DNA from: Escherichia phage tootiki
Length of the DNA: 64,000 bases
Sequence record: MN850647.1
Strand: one strand, 5' to 3'
The position numbers and the translations under genes were made by a program. Numbering within the stretch: the first letter of the stretch is position 1; each line of letters starts with the position of its first letter. Shown here in pieces: positions 43,268 to 43,398 of the stretch. Below the pieces are notes generated by a model. It did no database searches. It worked only from the letters and a program-made list of their open reading frames with translations, and had not been told where the DNA came from.

Positions 43268-43398
43268 CCAGACCGTTGTTTATCATCTTAAGTGCTACCA
43301 TTACACCAACTCGACCTCTGCCGAGTGAAGGAATCGAACCTTCGCCTTTTCTTTACCGAGAAATAGATTGTTTAAGTTTTGCTGTAAACGGTCTTCTG
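43268..43398 (-). ncRNA. structured tRNA-like spacer element (T-arm, closed acceptor-like hairpin, D-arm-like hairpin) bounded by CCAGACC / GGTCTTCTG inverted repeats
   Basis: Minus-sense: GAAGG-TTCGATT-CCTTC T-arm, then ACTCGGC-agag-GTCGAGT hairpin, then GTGT-AATGGTA-GCAC; no anticodon arm; flanks ACCGTT/AACGGT can pair. Confidence 0.4.

Follow-up and report, generated by a model that had tools for sequence, protein, structure and literature searches.

A circularly permuted tRNA-like element in a Felix O1-type phage as a probable Y-type RNA beside a Ro60-like protein gene

In the genome of the Felix O1-type phage tootiki (Escherichia phage; MN850647.1), a 125-nt element on the minus strand has the arms of a tRNA in circularly permuted order and lies near a gene whose product is predicted to resemble Ro60. 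The element occupies positions 43270-43394 of the 64-kb stretch that we analyzed (the window). Judged by comparison with related loci, its best description is that of a tRNA-like member in a family of phage Y-like RNAs, new and widespread, whose companions are Ro60-like proteins of the DUF2828/DUF7788 type. We put at roughly 70% the probability that it is a Y-type noncoding RNA, a divergent analogue of YrlA, that would serve as the RNA subunit of a Ro60-like phage ribonucleoprotein. The initial annotation of this DNA had proposed a YrlA-type, Y RNA-like RNA here, and the proposal is supported by the YrlA arm order of the element, by its Ro60-fold neighbor, and by recurrence of the pair on the same strand, with covariation, in other phages.

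The element sits inside an array of 24 tRNA genes called by ARAGORN on the minus strand, in a 430-nt gap without tRNAs that is flanked by tRNA-Asp and tRNA-Lys. The surrounding region (43120-43550) is 99.8% identical to that of Escherichia phage bumzen. Of 241 matching phage records, 239 carry the element intact and none annotates it as an RNA; its family is absent from Rfam 15 and from GenBank annotation, and the element and its sibling RNAs are identified nowhere in the literature searched. The GenBank labels "tRNA pseudogene" and "tRNA-OTHER" found in the region were rejected as descriptions of the element, since their positions are those of tRNA-Tyr and tRNA-Glu.

Read from its 5' end, the RNA begins with the first strand of a terminal stem, AGACCGUU (43394-43387), followed by a U and the heptamer ACAGCAA (43386-43379). 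Next come one strand of an inner stem, CUUAA/UUAAG (43376-43372 with 43291-43287), a variable-arm-like (V) hairpin, UUUCU/AGAAA (43363-43348), and a T-arm, GAAGG-UUCGAUU-CCUUC (43343-43327). Directly after the T-arm, an acceptor helix is closed into a hairpin, ACUCGGC-AGAG-GUCGAGU (43326-43309; 7 bp including one U.G pair), and a UG dinucleotide separates this hairpin from the D-arm, GUGU-AAUGGUA-GCAC (43306-43292). The second strand of the terminal stem, AACGGUCU (43277-43270), forms 8 bp with AGACCGUU. The minimum free energy (MFE) fold recovers the terminal stem, the T-arm, the acceptor hairpin, the D-arm and the V hairpin, along with 4 bp of the inner stem (CUUA/UAAG), which is 5 bp by eye. 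The element is a circularly permuted tRNA whose ends fall at the anticodon-loop position, and it has no anticodon loop. Its acceptor contains the pairs U2.G71 and C3-G70, and its AGAG acceptor loop lacks CCA. The T-arm, the closed acceptor hairpin with its G.U pair and the D-arm that were first read from the minus strand are each present there. Two further details of that description needed amending: the enclosing stem, given as ACCGTT/AACGGT, is present but longer, with 8 bp rather than 6, and what was called a missing anticodon arm is a missing anticodon loop, as an inner stem of 4-5 bp fills the position of the anticodon stem.

This arrangement of parts is not attributable to chance. A strict descriptor (a 5-bp T-stem with a UUCRANN loop, immediately followed by a perfect 7-bp hairpin, 2 nt and a 4-bp D-stem) matched once in the 64-kb window and once in 200 dinucleotide-preserving shuffles, for an expectation of 0.005. 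A relaxed descriptor that allowed mismatches was dropped, as its matches were as numerous in shuffled as in real sequence. In native order, neither ARAGORN nor the Rfam tRNA model at gathering score calls a tRNA on the element, and a sensitive Rfam tRNA scan matches the T-arm alone (14.9 bits). When sequences of the family were re-permuted into tRNA order, ARAGORN found full-length cloverleaves in the window element and in 9 of the 20 others, in each case requiring an "intron" of 21-44 nt at the anticodon position (36 nt for the window element) and assigning anticodons that vary from element to element. The element contains no standard-order cloverleaf with an anticodon loop of 7 nt.

We compared the element with sequences at 80 viral loci encoding homologues of the neighboring protein (44376-45791), of which 15 are from Felix O1-like phages and 65 from diverse large phages in which the protein is 39-46% identical. 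The strict descriptor found the permuted module at loci L018, L027 and L062, on the strand of the gene and ending ~45-225 nt before its start. No tRNA was called at these three module positions; L018 has several tRNA-like copies immediately upstream of its DUF2828 gene despite having zero tRNA genes. In the Felix O1-like loci L012 and L013, the acceptor reads ACCCUUC/GAAGGGU instead of ACUCGGC/GUCGAGU.

A covariance model built from 11 seeds, Felix O1-type sequences included (R1), scores the window element at 92 bits and finds non-seed members at 45-74 bits (L042/43, two at L055, a second copy at L039, two more at L074, and one at L019). At L085, a locus fetched independently, R1 gives the tRNA-like RNA 48.7 bits. 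A second model (R2), built from 16 distant-phage sequences with no Felix O1-type member, gives the window element, matched from end to end with all pairs standard, a score of 67.2 bits (E = 3.9e-12); as the R2 alignment came from R1, which had Felix O1-type seeds, circularity is reduced here rather than removed. Junctions between adjacent tRNAs are the false positives of both models, scoring at most 37 bits with mismatched stems.

In a 23-sequence alignment of the family, 92.5% of cells in paired columns hold standard pairs, compared to 61.8% upon shuffling and 34-45% with the partners displaced by 1-3 columns, and changes on both sides occur in 23 of the 25 pairs. Covariation extends to all seven pairs of the acceptor helix, in which 98% of cells are paired, and to the terminal stem. 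RNAalifold independently returned the same four helices, and an alignment of the distant phages alone gave the same covariation outcome. Across the family, almost no variation is seen at U8, A14, G18-G19 or in the T-loop UUCGA, so the tRNA elbow should form. By these comparisons, the present sequence of the element is under selection for structure. In 8 of the 16 distinct acceptor stems of the family, N-CCA opens the acceptor loop (P ~4e-11). This pattern suggests a two-piece mature form in those lineages and points to an origin from tandem tRNAs, in which the 3' end of one tRNA, a spacer and the 5' end of the next tRNA were retained; such an origin is plausible for the window element.

Some loci depart from this layout. 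Upstream of the DUF2828 gene and on its strand, L018 (3401-5883) and L074 (3761-5242) carry tandem arrays of at least seven module RNAs, three or four of which are tRNA-like copies with D-arms of the types GUGU...GCAC and GCUC...GAGC. One copy at L018 (4903-5014) has no acceptor hairpin at all, and one at L019 (2213-2322) has almost none. At L064 (8191-8315), the parts follow the order closed acceptor hairpin with GCCA, D-arm, anticodon-arm-like hairpin, T-arm; R1 scores this RNA at only 15.6 bits, and it may be a second, independent permutation.

The neighboring gene (44376-45791, minus strand) encodes a protein of 471 amino acids that Pfam assigns to DUF2828 and DUF7788, and it ends with a stop codon 982 nt upstream of the element on the same strand. 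An AlphaFold model based on 34 homologues (predicted local distance difference test score [pLDDT] 89; predicted template modeling score [pTM] 0.89) contains an alpha-helical, TROVE-like ring and a vWA domain with a DxSxS MIDAS motif (metal ion-dependent adhesion site; D278, S280, S282) that is invariant in the protein family. In Foldseek, the top 12 PDB matches are all Ro60/TROVE proteins, aligned over the full length with E values from 4e-9 to 8e-7 and TM scores up to 0.66. They represent Thermus phage phiLo Ro60, Xenopus Ro60 and Deinococcus Rsr (9KOP, 9L5Y, 2I91, 1YVP and 2NVO), and the next matches are isolated vWA domains. As modeled, the protein has the Ro60 fold, in which a vWA domain carrying a MIDAS closes a ring of HEAT repeats; the suspicion of the initial annotation that a vWA protein about 1 kb away may be Rsr-like is well founded.

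Gp130 of the Felixounavirus Bas63 is structurally Ro60-like and counters the Ppl defense (preprint 10.1101/2024.10.10.617714). Like the window protein, gp130 is a Felixounavirus protein encoded directly upstream of a tRNA stretch, and the two are likely counterparts, judging from genus, synteny and fold rather than from an alignment. The authors of the preprint only speculated that some annotated tRNA genes are Y RNAs (10.1101/2024.10.10.617714); the RNAs described here fall instead in the gaps between tRNAs. Searches of the literature gave nothing usable on expression in Felix O1-type phages or on the mechanism of Ppl.

In distant phages, the DUF2828 gene is found beside known or suspected counter-defense genes (L087, 7555-8058 and 11265-12431; L085, 2875-5493). 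One such phage has Acb1 and Gad2 near the gene, and another has phosphoribosyl pyrophosphate synthetase and NAPRTase, which belong to nicotinamide adenine dinucleotide (NAD) salvage; these neighbors fit a counter-defense role. No conserved protein partner of the kind of RtcB, an RNA ligase or PNPase was found beside the gene in three distant contexts. In the literature searched, DUF2828 appears only in eukaryotes (plants and a tardigrade genome). If the fold match holds across DUF2828, some eukaryotes may carry an unrecognized second Ro60-like lineage.

All tRNA-like members of the RNA family carry U-(A/U)-CAGCAA immediately after the 5' strand of the terminal stem, opposite an A-rich 3' side. 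Across the 80 loci, the ACAGCAA heptamer occurs 180 times on the strand of the gene and 40 times on the opposite strand, and it clusters just upstream of the DUF2828/DUF7788 gene and within ~1.3 kb after it. An anchored scanner that requires the motif, a G exactly 9 nt upstream and a 7-bp stem found 160 modules on the gene strand and 14 on the opposite strand, compared to 25-30 over both strands in shuffled sequence, with at least one module in 65 of the 80 loci. The 116 distinct instances have 50 different stem interiors. Positions that the scanner does not demand are also conserved, namely a U two nucleotides before CAGCAA and a G after the 3' strand, and the segment opposite the motif is A-rich. 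The module RNAs fall into three size groups, of ~50-72, 87-135 and 160-260 nt. In the window element, the same features are found: a terminal stem within the family range of 7-9 bp with the invariant G:C pair, the motif U-(A/U)-CAGCAA, which begins 9 nt downstream of the G, and a position near the DUF2828/DUF7788 gene on the same strand.

The scanner also revealed three sibling RNAs in the window, all on the minus strand, which together with the ACAGCAA module had been overlooked in the initial annotation. The first (43972-44037, 66 nt) lies between tRNA-Glu and tRNA-Met, with the stem AGACCAA/UUGGUCU, U-ACAGCAA at 44028-44022 and an R1 score of 26.2 bits. The second (43817-43871, 55 nt) lies between tRNA-Met and tRNA-Asn; it has the stem AGACCGU/ACGGUCU and a variant motif, UUCAGCAA, and R2 scores it at 28.8 bits (E = 7e-4). 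The third (43414-43483, 70 nt), again with AGACCAA/UUGGUCU and with U-ACAGCAA at 43474-43468, encloses a simple internal hairpin and is conserved in Felix O1-like loci. Of the four module RNAs in the window, only 43270-43394 has a tRNA core; its siblings consist of the stem and ACAGCAA module only. These RNAs, the element included, are spaced like members of the array, 10-13 nt from the flanking tRNAs. For the short, core-less RNAs, the scanner was used in place of a covariance model, because several rows of the MAFFT seed alignment had the 3' strand out of register by one column. Outside the Felix O1 group, the gap after the gene at L085 contains a promoter-like site and three module RNAs, of which the third is the tRNA-like RNA found by R1, and in Vibrio phage phi-pp2 the motif lies just upstream of the gene.

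YrlA RNAs, known from bacteria and mycobacteriophages, have paired 5' and 3' ends and the arm order V, T, closed acceptor, D, and are encoded within 4 kb of a Ro60 orthologue on its strand; they are bound by Ro60/Rsr in vivo and bear modifications of the tRNA type, namely pseudouridine 55 and dihydrouridine (Chen et al. 2014, PMC4201824). The element shares this arm order and its enclosure by paired ends, and it likewise keeps the nucleotides that make tertiary contacts in tRNA. It lies on the same strand as, and 982 nt from, the gene for a Ro60-fold protein, which at 12-16% identity and with no Pfam TROVE match is at most a candidate orthologue of Ro60. Its siblings without a full tRNA domain recall the YrlA/YrlB pairs beside bacterial Ro60 genes. 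The 7-bp acceptor is also seen in Mycobacterium smegmatis YrlA, which RNase P cuts and to which CCA is added. In one member of the family, the Rfam YrlA model (RF02553) has a match below its gathering score of 69 (L018, 5770-5880; 38.2 bits, E = 7.5e-5) that begins after ACAGCAA and spans the inner stem, T-arm, acceptor and D-arm. The element differs from YrlA in its partner, a DUF2828/DUF7788 protein without the Pfam TROVE signature, in being embedded in a phage tRNA array, and in belonging to a family half of whose members encode N-CCA in the acceptor loop.

Several results weigh against the Y-type reading. On the RNA side, the Rfam Y RNA and YrlA searches that the initial annotation had suggested as a check gave no Y_RNA or YrlA match on the element: RF02553, which is in Rfam 15, finds nothing in 43100-43560 at E <= 10. 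The YrlA motif GNCGAAN0-1G is missing near the 5' end of the element, where U-ACAGCAA stands instead. The folding energy is only modestly unusual (z = -2.05), with 8 of 200 shuffles folding equally well. At least one natural phage, Salmonella phage SP116, retains only the first ~72 nt of the element. As for the pairing of RNA and gene, no module lies within the fetched flanks of the gene in 15 of the 80 loci, nor near the gene in the independently fetched context of L087; the pairing is frequent but not universal. On the protein side, Pfam at E <= 0.1 reports DUF2828 and DUF7788 only and no TROVE, phmmer and a profile search against the PDB give no significant Ro60 match (profile E = 0.98), and identity to Ro60 is only 12-16%, so the likeness is at the level of the fold only. 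In addition, gp130 alone, on a plasmid or inserted in T7, restores growth on ppl hosts (10.1101/2024.10.10.617714). Because gp130 alone suffices, its Ppl phenotype needs none of the Felix O1-type RNAs.

By formal criteria, then, the element is not a member of YrlA but a divergent analogue of it. The part presumed to bind protein differs from that of YrlA in step with the divergence of the protein partner. A GGCGAAG at the V/T junction was rejected as the YrlA motif; it is misplaced, and the close relatives L003 and L010 have GGAGAAG. The sequence GGUCCGA, which marks the 5' strand of the conserved bulged helix of Y_RNA, is absent from the element, which has no Y_RNA match in a sensitive scan either; this model, RF00019, covers the metazoan and Deinococcus RNAs. 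In SP116 (NC_027329, 27754-27825) and at L004 (8454-8599), the element is kept only as far as the T-loop (its first ~72 nt) and continues into an apparent tRNA 3' end, with the acceptor hairpin, the D-arm and the adjacent hairpin all missing. This fusion apparently arose by recombination between two T-arms, and it demonstrates that the intact element can be lost in nature.

If the element is a Y-type RNA, a mechanism can be outlined. The Y-like RNAs would be co-transcribed with the tRNA array and cut out of the transcript by host tRNA-processing enzymes; because only 10-13 nt separate them from the flanking tRNAs, they could be released by the enzymes that act on tRNA precursors. Docking on the Ro60-like ring would fall to the stem and ACAGCAA module that they share, as Y RNA docks on Ro60 by its conserved stem. 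The tRNA-shaped domain would be the effector end, its L-shape recognized by a tRNA-binding partner, and would either tether the protein to that partner, as Deinococcus Y RNA does with PNPase, or serve as a tRNA look-alike. Its 7-bp acceptor may make the RNA a substrate for RNase P, as in M. smegmatis YrlA; the RNase P and CCA step is least certain for the window copy, because its AGAG loop has no CCA. The particle would act in RNA quality control or in counter-defense during infection.

A more elaborate version is speculative and on balance unlikely. It supposes a modular Ro60-like particle in large phages, whose guide or effector RNAs are interchangeable and dock by the ACAGCAA stem. The permuted-tRNA version would be cut by RNase P and matured with CCA into a two-piece tRNA impostor, which would recruit host tRNA enzymes or exoribonucleases to damaged RNAs or bait defenses, Ppl among them. 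If true, this would be a previously unrecognized form of RNA-based counter-defense, recycled from tandem tRNA genes.

Four other explanations have to be weighed against a Y-type RNA. The element could be a free-standing tRNA mimic that works independently of the Ro60-like protein, for example by acting as decoy or sponge toward an enzyme of the host that binds tRNA or toward a defense nuclease that targets tRNA; its proximity to the DUF2828 gene would then reflect a shared counter-defense neighborhood and no physical complex. Conservation of the elbow nucleotides and the 7-bp acceptor, the location in a tRNA array, the presence of Acb1, Gad2 and NAD salvage genes near the gene elsewhere, and the activity of gp130 against Ppl without the RNAs are all consistent with such a mimic. 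We nevertheless consider it quite improbable, as it leaves unexplained why core-less siblings have the stem and ACAGCAA module and why the module tracks the strand of the DUF2828 gene where no tRNA array is nearby (L018).

We give still less credence to a cis-acting element, either a structured processing spacer of the tRNA transcript or a leader or trailer for autoregulation of the protein. The RNAs of several distant phages lie upstream of the gene and stop 45-250 nt before its start codon, as a 5' leader might, and the 10-13-nt spacing of the window RNAs is that of array members. A leader is hard to reconcile with a position that flips by lineage, from upstream of the gene to 0.3-1.1 kb downstream of it behind tRNAs (Felix O1-type). 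Multiple tandem copies per locus and a full tRNA-like fold exceed the needs of a spacer, and L018 has the RNAs but zero tRNAs.

It is very unlikely that the element is a permuted gene for a working adaptor, in which cleavage of the acceptor loop and addition of CCA would yield a two-piece molecule resembling a tRNA or a transfer-messenger RNA (tmRNA) that is aminoacylated and enters the ribosome. N-CCA in the loops of other lineages recalls such a molecule, but CCA is missing from the window copy. Instead of an anticodon loop, its paired ends make a stem with an internal loop, and the anticodons assigned by ARAGORN are inconsistent across the family. As for a two-piece tmRNA, ARAGORN calls none, no tag reading frame is present, and in place of the alanine identity pair G3:U70 the acceptor carries U2.G71.

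The element could also be nonfunctional debris, either a tRNA pseudogene or the scar of a recombination that joined the 3' half of one tRNA to the 5' half of the next. This would accord with tandem tRNA junctions that mimic the order of T-arm and D-arm (up to 37 bits), with an N-CCA and spacer-like loop in half of the family that resembles a former tRNA 3' end and spacer, and with the T-arm recombination in SP116 and L004. It is nevertheless scarcely credible because it is contradicted by covariation, with acceptor strands 98% paired, compensatory change at all seven positions and a covarying terminal stem, and the element is intact in nearly all records and recurs beside proteins of only ~40% identity.

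Among known systems, a close parallel to the proposed Y-type particle is Thermus phage phiLo, which encodes Ro60 together with Yrl1 and Yrl2 and whose Ro60/Yrl complex engages host PNPase (PMC12135203); in Deinococcus, Y RNA tethers Ro60 to PNPase (PMC4201824). In phiLo as in the phage of the window, a Ro60-fold protein is encoded adjacent to two or more Y-like RNAs, and the phiLo Ro60 structures (PDB 9KOP and 9L5Y) are the top fold matches to the window protein. The phiLo protein differs in having been recognized as a Ro60 homologue by database search, and its RNAs in having been chosen by a CGAA motif in a stem-bulge-stem; the searched text of PMC12135203 mentions no tRNA-like domain.

Circularly permuted tRNA genes are reportedly found in the red alga Cyanidioschyzon merolae, where work attributed to Soma et al. 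in 2007 is said to have described their maturation to ordinary tRNAs with anticodon loops. In these genes as in the element, the 3' half comes first and a short linker connects the two acceptor strands; the element differs in lacking an anticodon and in having ends that pair into a long stem, which includes a conserved internal loop. The species 1 and 2 RNAs of phage T4 (rnaC and rnaD) are also small stable RNAs inside a phage tRNA cluster; they were rejected as relatives, having no ACAGCAA module and no R1 match.

Should the Y-type reading hold, it would extend the Ro60/Y RNA system to a protein family labeled a domain of unknown function, in an RNA-protein pairing that recurs in many large phages of very different kinds. 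The preprint that guessed at Y RNAs hidden among tRNA genes identified none (10.1101/2024.10.10.617714); the four RNAs described here, with exact coordinates and a candidate docking motif, are concrete candidates for the partner RNAs of a counter-defense protein, whose mechanism becomes directly testable through them. The family may also exemplify how tRNA-shaped regulatory RNAs arise from tandem tRNA genes.

Other features lie near these RNAs. Directly 3' of the element, a long hairpin of ~146 nt (43121-43266, minus strand; MFE -48.4 kcal/mol, z = -4.56) is conserved among Felix O1-like loci with compensatory changes (GCAG/CUGC to GUAG/CUAC). Its internal branch AGACC-CUUUAGCAA-GGUCU resembles a miniature ACAGCAA module, and the hairpin is possibly the system's fifth RNA, or else a site for RNase III-type processing. 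A consensus scan found two sigma-70-like promoter matches on the minus strand (44357-44329 and 44266-44237), between the stop codon of the Ro60-like protein gene and the first tRNA of the array, where transcription of the tRNAs and Y-like RNAs may begin. Promoter-like sites in 44237-44357 are not enriched over shuffles and are therefore weak evidence, as is a terminator-like site from the same kind of scan at 38854-38837.

Elsewhere in the comparison set, a class of large module RNAs (~200-250 nt) with the form GGAUCGG-UACAGCAAAAAGUAC ... CGAUCC is found at L020-L041 and L066, ~1.45-1.9 kb after the start of the gene. The same class occurs at L084 (360-573 and 2602-2848), and it is usually accompanied by a ~60-nt sibling.

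Three further observations concern the window itself. At 42555-42633 (minus strand), the Rfam tRNA model matches at 33.4 bits where ARAGORN makes no call; by eye, the sequence is tRNA-Arg(UCU)-like, with a long variable region, an encoded CCA and a nearly missing D-arm. At its 3' end, the sequence runs into the listed start of the HNH endonuclease open reading frame 42190-42588, whose true start is probably the internal MKTCIRC. A group I catalytic intron is matched at 5961-6244 (plus strand; Rfam RF00028, 61.3 bits, exceeding the gathering score). Right after a terminator-like hairpin, a tandem direct repeat at 10137-10180 (plus strand) consists of two copies of GGTCTGGTTTGGTAAGGT followed by GGTAAGG; it has the string GGUCUGG in common with the 3' ends of the Y-like RNAs, but on the opposite strand.

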